A model generated the notes under the pieces. The model saw only the letters and a program-made list of their open reading frames with translations, was not told the origin of the DNA and did no database searches. Shown one piece after another: positions 46,088 through 53,306 of a DNA stretch of 64,000 bases (its first letter is position 1; each line of letters opens with the position of its first letter). The translations under genes were made by a program, and so were the position numbers. The stretch is from the UHGV virus genome UHGV-1493261, one strand, 5' to 3'. Source of the DNA: a virus.

Positions 46088-46515
46088 TATGGTTTCCTCA
46101 ACCATTCTAAAATCGGTACGTTCACAAACCCTTTATGCCAGCGATGGGGTTTATGGCCTCTGTTGTGTTCGAGCAAACACGTGTCCGGTGGGACACTGAA
46201 GTGGATGCCGTCGATGTCGTAGTAATGCCCATCAATCAGAGTATACACATGACCTTCGGTCTGACTGTAATGGATCTCTGCTTGAGGGTACACGTGCTTC
46301 AACAACAGAGCGACCTGGTAACACTTCCCGTTCTTCCCCACATACTCGACATCCACCTGTTGTGGAAACACATCTTTGACAAGGTTTATCAATCTCGTGA
46401 TGTCATTTACGACAACCGAACGTTTCATATCACCTCTCCCGAGGATTCGTTGGTGAACCAATGATACTCTATCCCGGATATAGAAAAGCCCCTCACGGGG
46501 CTTGATCGTCTTCAT
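46087..46515 (-). CDS. hypothetical protein (142 aa)
   Basis: ORF. Confidence 0.4.
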
Positions 46516-46795
46516 CAGGGAATATACGCCATCGACCTATTCCATACCACTCACCGATAGAGTTCCACGTCCTTTCCCCAGGCCAGCCACCGACCGAGTA
46601 GTAATGCGCCACCAGCCGCCAGTAAGGAAGAGAGGCCGTGTTCACGCCGCCGTCGGCCTTTAGGCAGGCCAAGTACCAATTCGTGAGACTGAACGCCTGA
46701 AATAACGGATGAAGGAACATGAAGTACAGGTAGCCCAATATGGCTGTGAATACCCCAGCTGTTACGATCACACCGATGACAGTGAATACAATCAT
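46493..46795 (-). CDS. small membrane protein
   Basis: Hydrophobic N-terminus. Confidence 0.35.
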   Translation of the reverse strand: MIVFTVIGVIVTAGVFTAILGYLYFMFLHPLFQAFSLTNWYLACLKADGGVNTASLPYWRLVAHYYSVGGWPGERTWNSIGEWYGIGRWRIFPDEDDQAP

Positions 46796-47424
46796 CCCAC
46801 AACCTCCAGTCCCATCAGATCTTCCATGGTCTTCTGAATACGCAGCCAGTCAAGCGCAGCGTCATAACGAGGGTCGTGATAGACCATACCTTCCAGTTCC
46901 CACGCCTTGATGCCAGCATACCGATCCTGCTGTCCAACACCCTTCAGCCAACTCACGATGTCGAACGTGTGGTGGTAATCCCATGGCTCGTTGGAGTCCT
47001 GCTTACACGTCACTTCAATGATGTGCTGAGCCTTGCGTAGATCGAACAAGTTACGGTCACACCAGTCAACCGAGCGCGGGTCTACCCCAAGACGATGACA
47101 ACCCTTGCGGATTTCATCGGCCAATTGGAAGATAGAGATGTCATCTTCCTTGGGATACAGACTGACGGCGCGAGCCGCATCACACGGGTTGCGCTTGCCC
47201 GTGCCCAGCCACCATTCAACTGTCCCAGCGTCCTTCACGCGACCAAGTTCGAGCTGCTCTTTGACATTCAGCTTAATGAACGTCGTGCGCTCCTCAACCA
47301 GCTGCTGAAGAGTATAACGCTTGGTCAGGTCGGCGATGGTGTGTGCCCAAGACAGCATGACTGCATCATCCCAGCGCCCCAGGGTTTCGCTGTCGGCCAC
47401 AGCCAAAAAATTTGATTTATACAT
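46792..47424 (-). CDS. DEDD-family 3'-5' exonuclease (DexA-like)
   Basis: Exo I-like ADSET and Exo III-like YHDPRYDA. Confidence 0.5.
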   Translation of the reverse strand: MYKSNFLAVADSETLGRWDDAVMLSWAHTIADLTKRYTLQQLVEERTTFIKLNVKEQLELGRVKDAGTVEWWLGTGKRNPCDAARAVSLYPKEDDISIFQLADEIRKGCHRLGVDPRSVDWCDRNLFDLRKAQHIIEVTCKQDSNEPWDYHHTFDIVSWLKGVGQQDRYAGIKAWELEGMVYHDPRYDAALDWLRIQKTMEDLMGLEVVG

Positions 47425-47668
47425 GTTTATTCTCCCAACACTTTATTTTGGCTTTTACTGTATAATAATTTTCATCAATGAACTTTTTGTTGACGCGCTT
47501 AATTTCTATCTCTGGGCAAAGTAACCCTATAGTTTCCCTCAAAATCTGGCTCACCCTGGCCTGTGAAATACAATAAATTTCTGATACTTCTTTCGAACTA
47601 GATCCAGACATGACAAGTTTTAGAATATTGACCTTTTTATAAAATTCTTGATCAAACGCGCATATCAT
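47417..47668 (-). CDS. small sigma-70 region-4-like HTH protein
   Basis: EVSEIYCISQARVSQILRETI resembles sigma region 4.2; the gene is strongly AT-rich. Confidence 0.4.
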   Translation of the reverse strand: MICAFDQEFYKKVNILKLVMSGSSSKEVSEIYCISQARVSQILRETIGLLCPEIEIKRVNKKFIDENYYTVKAKIKCWENKHV

Positions 47669-47671
47669 TAT

Positions 47672-48286
47672 TCACCCCTCCTCGTCGATGATTTCTTGCT
47701 CATCTTCGACAATCATGATACCTTCTGTGTCTAGATGAGAAAGTTCCATCAGATCATCATCGAATCCGTCTCCTTCCCTGATATAGAAGACTGGGACGAC
47801 ACGGCGGCGGGTCTCTTCATACACGCTTTCAGAGATTCGATTGATATGGCGCACTACACTGTAGAGGTTCAGGCCACCAATACCACAGCCGATAGCAGGC
47901 AGGCCGACATAGACAGTTTCGTCTTTAGTTGCTTCCACAATTTCATGCACCTGCTCAAACAGGGTCTGAACAGAACTGATGACTGACGGCATTCGAGCGT
48001 TCGGGCCTGGATAAAACTGAGTGTAGAGGTTCGCACCCCAGACACCAGTGCTATGGTCAAATGCATAGGACATGCCACCCAGGCGTTGCTCTGGACCACG
48101 AGGGTCGTTCGCATCGACTTCGCGCAGCGCTGGGAAGTTGTTGCCGATGTGCAGGGCAATACCCGCGCCCATGGTAGACCAACAGTTGGCACCGTGGGCA
48201 AAGATGTCGATCAGATTGAAGCTACAGGCGGCTTTCAGTAAATCGCCGCCATTGATTACATAGGCTGTCATGCGTACTGTCTCCAT
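47672..48286 (-). CDS. macro-domain protein (ADP-ribose binding/processing)
   Basis: Macro-like N-terminal pattern VINGGDLL...FAHGANCWSTMGAGIA. Confidence 0.5.
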   Translation of the reverse strand: METVRMTAYVINGGDLLKAACSFNLIDIFAHGANCWSTMGAGIALHIGNNFPALREVDANDPRGPEQRLGGMSYAFDHSTGVWGANLYTQFYPGPNARMPSVISSVQTLFEQVHEIVEATKDETVYVGLPAIGCGIGGLNLYSVVRHINRISESVYEETRRRVVPVFYIREGDGFDDDLMELSHLDTEGIMIVEDEQEIIDEEG

Positions 48287-48510
48287 TCAATAATGCTGTT
48301 GTCAACACATGACACCTGGATGATGCCTGTGCGGTGGTGATAATCAGTCATCTGCATGATAAAGTTGTTCCCATTGCGGATAATGGTGTTGACAACGATA
48401 CCCTTGGCAGCAAGGCGTATTACAATGGCAGTGCAAAGGCGGTCCATGTAACCGGACACAGAACCTGGTTCGAAGCATCGCTCGAACAGATTTTCAAATT
48501 CTGGGCTCAT
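48268..48510 (-). CDS. small hypothetical protein
   Basis: ORF. Confidence 0.35.
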   Translation of the reverse strand: MSPEFENLFERCFEPGSVSGYMDRLCTAIVIRLAAKGIVVNTIIRNGNNFIMQMTDYHHRTGIIQVSCVDNSIIEWRQYA

Positions 48511-48560
48511 TTGATGTTACCAAACAAGGGGTCGAGGCGGTAATAATACCGCCTTTTTCT

Positions 48561-48971
48561 TCAATAGAGGTCTTCTGAAAAGAGTTCGCGGAAAGGGGTT
48601 GTCTTCAGGCGCACCTGATTGATCTGCCCAGCTTCACGGGCTACGATGCATGCCTCTTCACGAGTGAGGAAGTTGCCCTGGTTGTCGATGAATCCCTGTT
48701 CGCGGGTATGGGTGGATTTAATGACGCCTGCTTCTTTCAGGATCTTGAGCTGGCTGTTCATGAATCGGCTGTGGTGACGGTCGGCAACGACGATTACATC
48801 ACCATATTTGTTGGCAGCAGCGACCACACGGCGCTCCCAGGCACCTTCGACAGGAAGTTCACGAGTGTACAATGGAATCATCGTATCACCGATGTCATCC
48901 CCCTTCACCTGTGAGAACAACTTGCCTTCAGTGCCCGTTGGGAGTTCACGAAAATATCCCAGTAATTTCAT
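48561..48971 (-). CDS. hypothetical protein (136 aa)
   Basis: ORF; start 3 nt after the stop of the frameshifted gene. Confidence 0.45.
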   Translation of the reverse strand: MKLLGYFRELPTGTEGKLFSQVKGDDIGDTMIPLYTRELPVEGAWERRVVAAANKYGDVIVVADRHHSRFMNSQLKILKEAGVIKSTHTREQGFIDNQGNFLTREEACIVAREAGQINQVRLKTTPFRELFSEDLY

Positions 48972-48974
48972 AAT

Positions 48975-49252
48975 CTATTCAATCCAAATTTCAGGTTCAG
49001 AGATGTCAACCATATCCACTGTCTGGTTCTTCAGATCATGGAAACAGTCGCCGAGGAATTGTATTTTGCCGTCGGTCAGGAACAGATGGCAAATGATGCT
49101 GGATCAGTTGCATTCACCAGCAGGCTCGGTGTGAACGTAGGCTCAATAACATTGTTGTTCCACGACCACATCGGACCTTGGGTTTCGCCCTTAATGCGAT
49201 ATAGATGAAGTATACCACACCCAGGACAATGAAAATACAAGGAATCATCCAT
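48975..49252 (-). pseudogene. Cys/His zinc-ribbon-like gene (about 93 aa) split by a single-nucleotide frameshift
   Basis: Frame 1 (49252 down to stop 49076) gives MDDSLYFHCPGCG...PTFTPSLLVNATDPAS; frame 2 (49103 down to stop 48975) gives CHLFLTDGKIQFLGDCFH...; one extra T in the TTT run at 49091-49093 (minus strand) joins them. Confidence 0.5.
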
Positions 49253-49287
49253 AGACAGAAGTTTAGGGCTCAGAAGCTATGTTATGA

Positions 49288-49575
49288 TCAACCATCTACA
49301 GTGGCTTCAGGATCGTAGGGGCGCAGTTCACCAACCAGTTTCGGAAAGAGTGCAAGCCCGAACAGGTTGAAAGAACGCATAGTGCCTACCATTGCAACAT
49401 CTTCCCCTTCCTCGATATCTTTCAGGGCGCACATTGGATAATATTCATCGACCTCTGGGTCTTCCGTCTCACCATAGAGACCAAACGCCACCTCCTCTTT
49501 GATAAAGCGAGGAACCAGGAAATCAAATAGGATAATGATGAATACTATAGGTGCTGCAGAACGGAAATAGAACAT
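49288..49575 (-). CDS. hypothetical protein (95 aa)
   Basis: ORF. Confidence 0.4.
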   Translation of the reverse strand: MFYFRSAAPIVFIIILFDFLVPRFIKEEVAFGLYGETEDPEVDEYYPMCALKDIEEGEDVAMVGTMRSFNLFGLALFPKLVGELRPYDPEATVDG

Positions 49576-49616
49576 AGCACAACCCTCCAGGTGAGGAGGG
49601 GCGAACCCCTCCGATG

Positions 49617-50948
49617 CTATAGGCCAAGAGCCTTTTCAAGGTCATTAAGGTCTTCAGTGTAAAGATCGATGTCCTCTTTCTTACTTAATTCCTTGTGCTG
49701 TGCTTCAAGGTTCTCAATCTGCTTCAGTAGGCGCTCACGGGCGTCCAGAGTAATAGACGACAGAGGCATCTTGAACAACTCGTCAAGATCACCACCAAAG
49801 TCCGGGTAGTCCTGCATGAACAGAGACTTCAGCACGTCAATCTTTTGGCGGAGATCAACACGCGTCGCCCATTCAATGAACACCGCCCGGTCACCCAGCT
49901 TGCGGATCCTGTCTGCCATGTCCTTCAACAGATACTGGCGACGGTCTTCGTACCGTGACAGGCGATAATTGAAGAACGGCAGCAACATGTCCCGCCAACC
50001 AGAATAACGATGAATAACACCGTCTTCATCCCAGGCCGTCCAAACAGGCTTGGTGGCTGAATACAGCTTGAACATCTGCTCAACCTGCTCGTCACTCAGC
50101 TTAGAGAGTTCGCCGCGCTTAAACACAACCGTGATATCCCAGCCATCTTCGGTCGTGTCGTTGGCGTACTCGGTCAGGATACCTGCCTTATACAGAGGCA
50201 ACAACACCTTGGTCTCATAAGTCTTGGCGAACCAACCCACTGGGACTTCGGTGATATGCAGGGTCGTGGCATTGACCCGACGGAAGATACCGCGACTGTA
50301 TGCTCTTCCTTCCTCAGTATAGCCTGTCTCCCCTTTGTAGCCGTTCCAGTACGGTTTTAAGTCTTTCGGGTCTTCGCCACGGAGAAGCGCTCTCAGGGCA
50401 CTGAGCACGGACTTAACGCAATGACACGGGGTGTCGGTAGAATATCCGGTGCCGATACCATTGATCCCATTCACCAGGAACATGGGTAGGATGGGCAGAA
50501 AGAACTTCGGCTCCAGTCTTTCTTCACCAAGGTAGTTGTATTCCAAGATACCCTCATCCTCCTTACGGAAGATCTTGCGGATAACATCAGATACAGCGAC
50601 GGATATGTATCGGGCAGATGAAGCATCACGCCCCATGATAGAACCAAACTGGCCATCGCGGTCAAAGTACGGGATGTTGTTCGTGCCTGGGAACCCCTGA
50701 GCCATGTTCACGATAGTGCCGCTCATGTTCTCACCACCAGACTTGTAGTTGGTGCGAGCGGCGGCGAACATACCAAGGCGGTCAACGATCTCCTCCTTGT
50801 TGTACTCAAGAGCAGCAAAGAGGATCTTGCGCTGGCTTGGCTTGAGGCTGTCAATCAGCTGAGGGATTTGACGGATGCTGTTGACCACAGAAAACTGCTT
50901 ATGGTCAGTGTTGACAAAGTCCGTTACAGTAATGCTCTTGGCAACCAT
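49617..50948 (-). CDS. 52: DNA topoisomerase II medium subunit, T4 gp52-like (GyrA-like)
   Basis: Matches my recollection of T4 gp52 (IDSLKPSQRK, catalytic-Tyr region AAARTNYKSGG); start at 50948 or 51011. Confidence 0.85.
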   Translation of the reverse strand: MVAKSITVTDFVNTDHKQFSVVNSIRQIPQLIDSLKPSQRKILFAALEYNKEEIVDRLGMFAAARTNYKSGGENMSGTIVNMAQGFPGTNNIPYFDRDGQFGSIMGRDASSARYISVAVSDVIRKIFRKEDEGILEYNYLGEERLEPKFFLPILPMFLVNGINGIGTGYSTDTPCHCVKSVLSALRALLRGEDPKDLKPYWNGYKGETGYTEEGRAYSRGIFRRVNATTLHITEVPVGWFAKTYETKVLLPLYKAGILTEYANDTTEDGWDITVVFKRGELSKLSDEQVEQMFKLYSATKPVWTAWDEDGVIHRYSGWRDMLLPFFNYRLSRYEDRRQYLLKDMADRIRKLGDRAVFIEWATRVDLRQKIDVLKSLFMQDYPDFGGDLDELFKMPLSSITLDARERLLKQIENLEAQHKELSKKEDIDLYTEDLNDLEKALGL

Positions 50949-50949
50949 C

Positions 50950-51399
50950 TTACCCACGATAACCTCCCACTTCATATGGATCGACAATGTAGTCCACAAT
51001 CCAAGTTTCAAGTTTTACCGCCAGAGGAGATTTGTCTTCTTCATCCAGGGTGTAATATCTTTTGCCAGTACCCTTCAGTGGGTCGTACACAACAAGTTTT
51101 TCATGACGAGTGTCTAAGATGATCTGGTGCAATAACCCTGGCGTTGCTGGACTTGGCACGCAAAGCAGATAAACATAATCATGATAGATGGTGGCAGTTT
51201 GGTTGATCCCTTTCCCTTGCAAGAACGGAACCCCTTCCATACAAAGAACGTCACCAATCGTGGTTTCCCAATTCGCGAAACTTTCATGCCATATTTCAGC
51301 AACCTCGGCGACCGGACGCTCAAGTAACATCGCCAGGCACGTTGACATACACGTGTCTTTTGTTGGCTGCATCTGATGAGTTAGTGGATATTCCATCAT
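50950..51399 (-). CDS. peptidase C39-like (papain-fold cysteine peptidase) domain protein
   Basis: QMQPTKDTCMSTCLAML (Gln/Cys box) and HEKLVVYDP (His box); ATGA overlap with the gp39 stop. Confidence 0.5.
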   Translation of the reverse strand: MMEYPLTHQMQPTKDTCMSTCLAMLLERPVAEVAEIWHESFANWETTIGDVLCMEGVPFLQGKGINQTATIYHDYVYLLCVPSPATPGLLHQIILDTRHEKLVVYDPLKGTGKRYYTLDEEDKSPLAVKLETWIVDYIVDPYEVGGYRG

Positions 51400-53306
51400 T
51401 CATCCTCGGTTTCAAATAGACAAACATCGCTAAACCAGGTTTTGCGGTAATCGGCGGCCTCATCACCGAAGCCATTCTTCAGTGACTGTTGATAGCCATC
51501 GTCCAGCGTGACCGTCGTAGTATACGCATCCAGGTTGTTTAGAATACGCTTGAAGTCTTCAGTGCTGTTGCCACCCAGACCTTTCAGATATTTCTTCTTC
51601 GTGATCTTCTTGGCATCGGGGGTCTTCAGGAACTCCTCATACTCGGTGTTGTTCATGAACTCATGCATCACCTTACCACACCACACGCGCATATAAGGAG
51701 TACGCAGCAGCTTCAGCCTGCCCTGACGGACGTACTCTGGCCAGAACGTACAATACAGGGTGATCAACAACCCACGGATGTGAATGCCGTCGTCGTCCGC
51801 ATCGGTAGCCACAACAGTCTGTGGGTAACGGCTGATGTCAAGGGGCTGGCCTGGTACTGCACCACCGTGGATGGTACACAGATTCTTGAACTCTTCGTTT
51901 GCCATCACCTTTGAGCGCGGGGCGTTCAAACAGTTGATGAACTTACCACGAAGCGGGAACAACCCGATCTTCTTGGTGTCGCGGGCGTTCAGGATAGGAT
52001 TGGAGGCACTATCACCCTCTGTCAGCAACAGGGAGCATCCGCTGCGGTCACCACGGGCGGTCGCCGGGTAATACTTCTCAATCTCACGATAATCCCGCTT
52101 GCTGATGTCCTTCTTGGCCTTTTCAAACTCAGCATCATCCTGCTCATTGCGCAGGGAAGCCAGTTCTTTACTCAGACCAGCCGTAACGAACTCAAGCGCC
52201 TTGCGGATCAGTTTATCGCTGGGCTTGTACGACGTACCGAACTGGCTGACAGGAGTGGTCATGCGCTCCTTGGTCTGGCTGTCAAAGCGTGGGTTGTTGA
52301 TGTCGGCAGCGATGAACAAGGACATGTGGTTCTTGATCATTGCTGGCTTCAGCTCGGTCTTGAACTTCTTCACCAGCTGGGGACGAATCGCTGCCACGAT
52401 CTGGTCGGCAACATAATCAACGTGAGGACCACCGATGTGGGTGGCAATAGAGTTCACGTATGATGCGTGCATGAACGTACCGGATGAAGGGGCTACAGCA
52501 ACAGACCAATCCCCGGTTTCGTCAACAGCCGAGCCAGCATGGAAGTAATCAACGAAATGGCCAAAGCGGTCAATCCGGATTTGCTTCCCGTTGAGAACAA
52601 TCTTCAGGCGCGGGTTACACGCAGCCACTTCAAACGCGCGGCGATAGATCATCAGCAGGTTGTTCTGGTCAAGTCCTTTGACGCCCAGGCGAGCATAGTC
52701 AGGGATCCAGGCGATGGATGTGCCAGGACTGTTCACGTTGCTGATGACTGGGTTAGATTTCTTGCTCATGTTATCTTCAAACGTCTGAGTATAAGACTTC
52801 TTGCCGTCATTAGTCGTGACGCGGAACCATTTGGAGAACACGTTGACGAGGGACGCCCCTTCGCCATTCTGACCACCGGACTTCTGGTTGTTGTACTCTT
52901 CGTCTTCGTCGTTGAAGTTCGATCCCGCATATAGAGAGCCGAACAACATTTCAGGAAGCCACTCGTTGGTGACGCCATGCTTGACCACAGGGATACCCCC
53001 GTTGTCAGCAACGATGATTTGACCGTTCATCGGGGAAACTGTGACGGTGATTTCCGTCAGGGATTTGCCCTCAGGGGTCTTGCTGTGGTCAACACAGTTG
53101 GTGATGATTTCATCAAACTGTTTGATCAGCGCGGGGGAGTACTCAAAGTTGTCACGGAAGATGACTTTGTCCTTAGTTGGGTCATACACCCACACCGTCC
53201 CCACAGACGAACGAATACTGCCCAGATGACGCTCTGGGCGGAGTAGGATATGCTCAACGTGAGTGAGCTTCTTGTACTTGCGTTCAATATCAATTTTGTT
53301 GGACAT
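51396..53306 (-). CDS. 39: DNA topoisomerase II large subunit, T4 gp39-like (GyrB-like ATPase plus TOPRIM)
   Basis: EHILLRPERHLGS; GHKL ATPase; TOPRIM LLLTEGDSA. Confidence 0.85.
   Translation of the reverse strand: MSNKIDIERKYKKLTHVEHILLRPERHLGSIRSSVGTVWVYDPTKDKVIFRDNFEYSPALIKQFDEIITNCVDHSKTPEGKSLTEITVTVSPMNGQIIVADNGGIPVVKHGVTNEWLPEMLFGSLYAGSNFNDEDEEYNNQKSGGQNGEGASLVNVFSKWFRVTTNDGKKSYTQTFEDNMSKKSNPVISNVNSPGTSIAWIPDYARLGVKGLDQNNLLMIYRRAFEVAACNPRLKIVLNGKQIRIDRFGHFVDYFHAGSAVDETGDWSVAVAPSSGTFMHASYVNSIATHIGGPHVDYVADQIVAAIRPQLVKKFKTELKPAMIKNHMSLFIAADINNPRFDSQTKERMTTPVSQFGTSYKPSDKLIRKALEFVTAGLSKELASLRNEQDDAEFEKAKKDISKRDYREIEKYYPATARGDRSGCSLLLTEGDSASNPILNARDTKKIGLFPLRGKFINCLNAPRSKVMANEEFKNLCTIHGGAVPGQPLDISRYPQTVVATDADDDGIHIRGLLITLYCTFWPEYVRQGRLKLLRTPYMRVWCGKVMHEFMNNTEYEEFLKTPDAKKITKKKYLKGLGGNSTEDFKRILNNLDAYTTTVTLDDGYQQSLKNGFGDEAADYRKTWFSDVCLFETEDE

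Follow-up and report, generated by a model that had tools for sequence, protein, structure and literature searches.

The interrupted gene on the minus strand of the DNA studied here is very probably an ordinary, multiply lesioned pseudogene of the DUF6527 family (PF20137, BubE), which is decaying by a real deletion of one nucleotide that followed the loss of its native start. The window, i.e. the whole analyzed stretch of 64,000 nucleotides of the virus genome UHGV-1493261, is assigned by its sequence to an E. coli-infecting, Agtrevirus-like member of the Ackermannviridae. We observed the lesions themselves, their sharing and their diversity among related phages, a clustering of indels in this gene, a raised pN/pS and the membership of the joined protein in a known family. 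Public genomes already contain the allele of the window.

Layout of the locus and family of the joined protein

The sequence-only reading had described a minus-strand ORF with a CPGC motif from an ATG at 49252 to a stop at 49076, a second frame open from 49103 to 48975 and a TTT run at 49093-49091. All of these features are present (Table 1). The translation of the first ORF is a product of 58 amino acids (MDDSLYFHCPGCG...DPASFAICS*, in full MDDSLYFHCPGCGILHLYRIKGETQGPMWSWNNNVIEPTFTPSLLVNATDPASFAICS*). Its residues 1-54 are homologous and include the CPGC knuckle (C9, C12) and the invariant S43; four out-of-frame residues, AICS, precede the TGA. The -1 frame is open after a TGA (49106-49104), ends with a TAG (48977-48975) and encodes SSIICHLFLTDGKIQFLGDCFHDLKNQTVDMVDISEPEIWIE*. 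The part of it that follows the lesion contains the invariant residues C55, H56, G62, D69 and H72 as well as the near-invariant C70. In the 3' half no ATG, GTG or TTG start was found ahead of the conserved motifs, and no ORF of at least 25 amino acids is listed in this frame. Because a start codon before the conserved motifs is missing, the 3' frame is not translatable on its own.

Addition of one T, which had been proposed to join the halves, results in a protein of 92 amino acids with the junction at residue 54/55. The joined protein matched PF20137 (DUF6527, now BubE) with an E value of 2e-12 and 47.2 bits at a cut-off of 23.6. This match comprises residues 4-66 and profile positions 2-62 of 63 and runs across the junction. 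The 5' fragment alone reached 33.9 bits (profile positions 2-45 of 63), and the orthologue from phage Ag3 reached 50.3 bits. A frame of 43 codons would be open by chance in about 13% of cases for random sequence. Despite this possibility, the PF20137 match across the junction indicates that the two halves belong to one gene. The joined sequence also matched PHROG 3362 (E 5e-41). This match starts at profile position 12 because the native N-terminal extension is missing. The added T restores the reading TCA TTT TGC of the close relatives AV101, RPN242, ZQ1, fGh-Ecl02 and A221, all of which read four Ts.

In an alignment of 99 homologues C9, C12, S43, C55, H56, G62, D69 and H72 are invariant and C70 is near-invariant (numbering of the 92-residue protein). 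The break separates the CPGC knuckle and Ser43 in the 5' ORF from the CH...DCxH segment in the 3' frame. The four cysteines of the predicted zinc cluster (C9, C12, C55 and C70) are all encoded in the window DNA, C55 and C70 in the shifted frame. The AF2 model of an intact orthologue (pLDDT 95.8) is a single domain of eight strands for which both halves are required; the 3' segment gives strands 66-71, 74-77 and 89-91 of the predicted fold. According to this model the intact protein, of about 103 amino acids, folds into one compact domain made up of beta-strands only; it carries the CPGC knuckle near the N-terminus, the invariant Ser and the CH...DCxH segment. The gene had been called zinc-ribbon-like. 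Its conserved cysteines and histidines are indeed real in the 99 homologues, but the family is DUF6527/BubE and not a zinc ribbon with two knuckles. A classical zinc ribbon with two CxxC knuckles was also tried as a candidate and rejected: Zn_ribbon_IS1595 scored 14.8 bits versus a cut-off of 25.4 and matched the first knuckle only, and the later candidate ligands C-H and D-C-x-H are located on separate strands of the AF2 model. A PADLOC search gave no match.

In most Ackermannviridae the gene occupies a slot between the topoisomerase II medium-subunit and membrane-protein genes on one side and the Arn.3-like gene on the other. The neighbors in the window are the topoisomerase II subunit genes, the small membrane-protein gene, the Arn.3-like gene, a DUF7234 gene and a weakly macro-domain-like (Tk.4) gene. 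The close spacing to the downstream gene that had been reported was confirmed, as the Arn.3-like ATG at 48971 is placed 3 nt past the old TAG of the pseudogene. Four ORFs which overlap the locus (plus strand, 48808-49134 and 49038-49208; minus strand, 49114-49248 and 49036-49113) were considered as real genes and rejected with no PHROG match. A search for an internal promoter in the 3' half gave one sigma-70-like match at 49092-49063, which is within chance (2 found, 1.6 expected).

Several further differences between the phages were noted in the surroundings. The 149-aa ORF of Table 1 matched PHROG 4049, a family of unknown function, and no Pfam family. Phage LHE287, which is otherwise 98% identical, lacks this ORF; AV101 carries a 100% identical copy, and 4HA11, Ag3 and many other phages have it as well. 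The essential pair of topoisomerase II genes harbors a presence/absence polymorphism at this point. LHE287 also has nothing that corresponds to about 246 nt at 47425-47669. In 4HA11 the upstream membrane-protein gene has lost 1 nt (equivalent to window position 49533) and is annotated as two fragments, and in CECAV_050 it shows a 9-nt in-frame deletion (equivalent to 49547-49555).

Table 1. Positions of the pseudogene, its lesion and nearby genes in the window
Feature	Positions	Strand	Remarks
149-aa ORF	50950..51399	-	between two topoisomerase II subunit genes; start/stop overlaps at both ends
Upstream small membrane-protein gene	49288..49575	-	95 aa; PHROG 2241
Remnant of the native N-terminal extension	49253..49285	-	ATA ACA TAG CTT CTG AGC CCT AAA CTT CTG TCT
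5' fragment of the DUF6527/BubE-like pseudogene	49076..49252	-	58-codon ORF, ATG 49252-49250 to TGA 49078-49076
Lesion site, TTT run	49091..49093	-	one T deleted, -1 frame shift
3' fragment of the pseudogene	48975..49090	-	-1 frame, encodes CHLFLTDGKIQFLGDCFHDLKNQTVDMVDISEPEIWIE*
Downstream Arn.3-like gene, intact	48561..48971	-	T4 Arn.3-like, 136 aa; annotated Arn.3 in relatives
DUF7234 protein	48268..48510	-	80 aa; E 8e-41; downstream of Arn.3
Tk.4-like protein	47672..48286	-	204 aa; sub-threshold macro-domain signal; downstream of Arn.3
83-aa ORF	47417..47668	-	weak sigma-70 region 4 / LuxR-type HTH signal (E about 0.006)

Start loss and frameshifts among related phages

In the 1.4 kb that surround the locus the window shares 95-98% identity with LHE287, AV101, fGh-Ecl02, PC3, PH4, ZQ1, A221, CECAV_050, RPN242, YX22 and 4HA11, and about 92% with Ag3, Gloob and P46FS4. 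A tblastn search detected the gene in about 300 phage records, 283-288 of which cover at least 80% of the query, and about 280 Ackermannviridae genomes other than the window carry it intact. Among the matches listed, every record that belongs neither to the E. coli clade nor to EspM4VN showed a match in a single piece; Kuttervirus, Klebsiella and Serratia phages are among these. In the comparison with orthologues that had been suggested earlier, most orthologues cross the junction in a single frame, and the broken relatives carry different lesions. The orthologues of Shigella phage Ag3 (orf00020), Gloob (gp13) and 4HA11 (AC4HA11_0140) are found in the same slot, from the membrane-protein gene to Arn.3 and downstream of topoisomerase II. 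They are 86-89% identical to the joined window sequence at the protein level and nearly identical to it in the DNA of the 3' half. They differ in that they consist of one unbroken ORF of 103 codons with a native ATG and GAGGG before it.

This native start reads ATG TCA/CCA CAG in Ag3, Gloob and 4HA11 and is located 2 nt past the upstream stop. Most Ackermannviridae homologues have a length of 103-104 amino acids and start with MSxLLSPKLLSMG. In the window the native start, 11 codons upstream of the ATG at 49252, has become ATA (49285-49283), and CAG as codon 3 has changed to TAG (49279-49277); the remnant translates to I T * L L S P K L L S. In the DNA alignment the native ATG...CAG has given way to ATA (GTA in A221) and TAG in all members of the E. 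coli clade. The window ORF begins at an internal Met codon, the ATG at 49252, which has no Shine-Dalgarno sequence and is located 35 nt past the previous stop. Residues 2-6 and 9-12 of the lost extension are part of confident beta-strands in the AF2 model, from which we infer that the loss of the 11-residue N-terminus impaired the protein and that even the "open" copies of A221 and fGh-Ecl02 are probably impaired. Since these two phages keep a 92-codon ORF from the internal Met, the clade-wide start loss may not have fully inactivated the gene. The sequence-only reading had listed a recent inactivation as one of three options. The loss of the T does inactivate the gene, but the native start had already been lost and the in-frame stop gained in the ancestor of the E. 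coli clade. In the window no uninterrupted ORF for the full domain is left, with the 1-nt deletion, the ATA at the start and the in-frame TAG all present.

The alleles were compared in a DNA alignment of 1.4 kb from 13 genomes, which was decisive; PH4 was left out. At the lesion site the more distant intact orthologues, in this alignment those of Ag3, Gloob and 4HA11, read TCA CGT TGC. A221 and fGh-Ecl02 have four Ts (TTA TTT TGC) and a 92-codon frame which is open from the internal Met. Three Ts, with one T lost at alignment column 211, were found in the window, LHE287, PC3, YX22 and CECAV_050. Further lesions accompany this allele in PC3, where the internal ATG has been lost by a change to ACG, and in CECAV_050, which has an extra CC. 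AV101, ZQ1 and RPN242 have four Ts: AV101 has lost a T in TGTTTC, ZQ1 shows both the change of ATG to ACG and the loss of an A from AAAA, and RPN242 has an extra T near codon 27. The tblastn match of PH4 is in two pieces, exactly as that of PC3. LHE287 has the identical truncated ORF of 177 nt (XAN60178.1) with the three-T allele and the clade-wide start loss, and the same two lesions are present at the loci of PC3, PH4, YX22 and CECAV_050. All five loci are a few substitutions apart from that of the window.

Besides the three-T allele, the sister phages show four other frameshifts and the change of ATG to ACG. In the Aglimvirinae we counted at least seven distinct lesions. The E. coli clade accounts for five frameshifts and for two losses of a start; the events in EspM4VN and in the Limestoneviruses are separate. 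EspM4VN has its own deletion of a G in AAGGGCGAA and an intact native start (locus L013, 119-428). The Limestoneviruses have only the first approximately 56 codons, fused to unrelated sequence, and their Arn.3 slot differs (Dickeya phage XF4, locus L014, 369-608). The three-T allele itself occurs on at least three flanking haplotypes and was therefore distributed by recombination or by recurrent slippage. A scan of IMG/VR gave no match to the three-T allele and one match to the four-T allele, on a contig with the RPN242-type frameshift.

The lesion is a change in length by a single base in a homopolymer, and with four Ts a frame of 92 codons is open in the close relatives A221 and fGh-Ecl02. 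Both observations would be in line with a sequencing or assembly error, an option that had been raised before, with a phage that truly has TTTT and a gene which is at least open from the internal Met. We consider such an error quite unlikely, however. The same three-T allele was deposited in GenBank for five independent genomes (LHE287, PC3, PH4, YX22 and CECAV_050) from different laboratories and countries, and a run of 3-4 Ts is too short for the usual platform error. Over 48.6 kb compared with LHE287 the indels are mostly compensating pairs in divergent stretches, with no excess of isolated homopolymer indels. Moreover, with four Ts the native start would still be absent and the upstream in-frame stop would remain.

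Selection on the gene and other readings of the interruption

Five of the six frame-breaking indels in the alignment of 13 genomes are located inside the 279-nt gene. The sixth is found in the membrane-protein gene of 4HA11, and the 411-nt Arn.3 gene has none. The pN/pS ratio within the clade (Nei-Gojobori) was 0.70 for the gene, with 0.93 for the N-terminal and 0.25 for the C-terminal half, compared to 0.08 for Arn.3 and 0.24 for the membrane-protein gene; these ratios are based on few substitutions in visibly recombinant genomes. The nucleotide diversity of the region has its peak in the 5' half of the pseudogene. The 3' half is nearly invariant with a pi of about 0.015, and together with its low pN/pS this counts against a long-standing neutrality. 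A low-diversity tract on the minus strand (49085-48906, pi 0.010-0.020 across the 13 genomes) includes the 3' half of the pseudogene as well as the first approximately 60 nt of Arn.3. This tract may be a recent recombination tract or may reflect a constraint tied to the expression of Arn.3.

The N-terminal fragment of 58 residues could also be a functional, newly truncated CPGC knuckle peptide, so that the gene would have been reshaped and not killed. LHE287 annotates the same 58-codon ORF, the three-T allele is found on several haplotype backgrounds, and the Limestoneviruses likewise keep N-terminal codons only. Nevertheless, a functional peptide is very unlikely. The N-terminal half evolves almost neutrally, the ATG at 49252 is the poorly placed internal codon without a Shine-Dalgarno sequence described above, and PC3 combines the three-T allele with the loss of exactly this ATG. 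The fragment furthermore lacks three of the eight predicted strands and the invariant residues C55, H56, D69 and H72. A collection of 15 billion proteins contains no exact match to the 58-aa product of the window or to that of LHE287.

The third option, a programmed -1 ribosomal frameshift or a transcriptional slippage at the T run which would lead to the full-length protein, has hardly any chance of being correct. The two frames do share 27 nt, the halves could be joined by a -1 shift at any point of 49103-49079, and the 3' half is well conserved. But no X XXY YYZ heptamer occurs in the overlap (GAT CCA GCA TCA TTT GCC ATC TGT TCC TGA), and re-pairing of tRNA-Phe would have to take place on AUU. 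The 81 nt downstream (49100-49020) showed a minimum free energy of -12.2 kcal/mol versus a mean of -13.6 for shuffled sequences (z = 0.55), and 137 of 200 shuffles folded at least as well. An Rfam scan of 46500-52500 at E <= 0.1 gave no match. Polymerase slippage would require a much longer run than three Ts. The arrangement in two frames is not conserved: most orthologues have the whole gene in one frame, and the broken relatives either would have to shift elsewhere and in the opposite direction or lack the start codon. The tail assembly chaperones G/GT of phages are likewise encoded in two overlapping frames of one protein which are joined by a -1 shift. Unlike G/GT, the locus in the window has no slippery heptamer, no stimulatory structure and no conserved split.

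Of the three alternatives offered by the sequence-only reading, consequently, only the inactivating mutation is left, and the lesions in the relatives are both shared and varied. The pseudogene very probably arose as follows. The ancestor of the E. coli-infecting, Agtrevirus-like clade lost the native start (ATG to ATA) and gained the in-frame stop (CAG to TAG). Selection on the gene then relaxed, and different members gained different frameshifts. In the window one T has been lost from the TTTT run. This splits the CPGC knuckle and Ser43 from Cys55, His56, Asp69, Cys70 and His72, and no functional product is expected.

Annotation and comparison with BubE

In the public genomes of the clade the remnant is annotated in five or six inconsistent ways, all of which are resolved by one alignment. 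The variants are a 58-aa N-terminal ORF, internal ORFs of 44-46 aa, C-terminal ORFs of 63-65 aa, no feature at all and, in intact relatives, an "anaerobic dehydrogenase". This label ("putative" in the case of Gloob gp13) and the label "ammonia monooxygenase" are inherited, and none of the profiles searched supports them. The appropriate annotation for the locus is a pseudogene of the DUF6527/BubE family, and neither a hypothetical protein of 58 aa nor an "anaerobic dehydrogenase". Roughly 280 Ackermannviridae genomes conserve this gene, yet the E. coli-infecting, Agtrevirus-like lineage can clearly do without it. The wider point is that a BubE-like peptidase gene was lost repeatedly in one phage lineage.

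A literature search on the DUF6527 domain found biochemical work for BubE only. BubE is part of bacterial Bub (6E) ubiquitination-like operons and is described as a Ser-His peptidase which binds zinc and removes conjugates of Ubl (bioRxiv 10.1101/2024.11.21.623953). The Pfam labels of one tool used here give PF20137 the name BubE. Because BubE removes ubiquitin-like conjugates, the intact phage orthologues are reasonable candidates for a counter-defence function; this idea concerns the intact relatives and not the dead copy in the window. The repeated disruptions might even be adaptive. The intact protein would then be a Ubl-deconjugating counter-defence peptidase which brings an advantage on Salmonella, Klebsiella or Shigella hosts but no advantage or even a cost on E. 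coli hosts, and the lineage would have shed it after a host shift. We regard this extension as unlikely.

With respect to gene context, a plasmid-borne, Mu-like prophage of Raoultella carries a DUF6527 gene beside terL, and on other contigs such genes are found among small phage genes. Both plasmid matches that were examined are located in prophage or phage-like regions. A scan of contigs for BubE-type sequences revealed relatives at 40-60% identity only. Unlike the genes of the Bub operon, the phage copies stand alone without E1, E2 or Ubl neighbors, and the copy in the window is broken. The phage protein has a CxxC where BubE has CxCxC and an adjacent C-H where BubE has C-x-x-H, and it is devoid of the hydrophobic extension.

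Apart from these differences the two proteins have much in common. BubE and the phage protein belong to the same Pfam family PF20137 and are small beta-sandwiches of eight strands which have no solved structural relative. Both contain an N-terminal Cys cluster, a later Cys and an invariant Ser and His. In Citrobacter BubE the zinc cysteines are C57, C59, C61 and C99, and the Ser-His dyad consists of S92 and H102 (bioRxiv 10.1101/2024.11.21.623953). The spacing from the first Cys to the Ser is 34 residues in the phage protein (C9-S43) and 35 in Citrobacter BubE (C57-S92). Based on invariance and on this spacing, S43 and H56 of the phage protein are candidate equivalents of S92 and H102 of BubE; H72 is also invariant and is a second candidate for the His. 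By analogy to BubE, the intact phage protein is probably a zinc-stabilized Ser-His peptidase.
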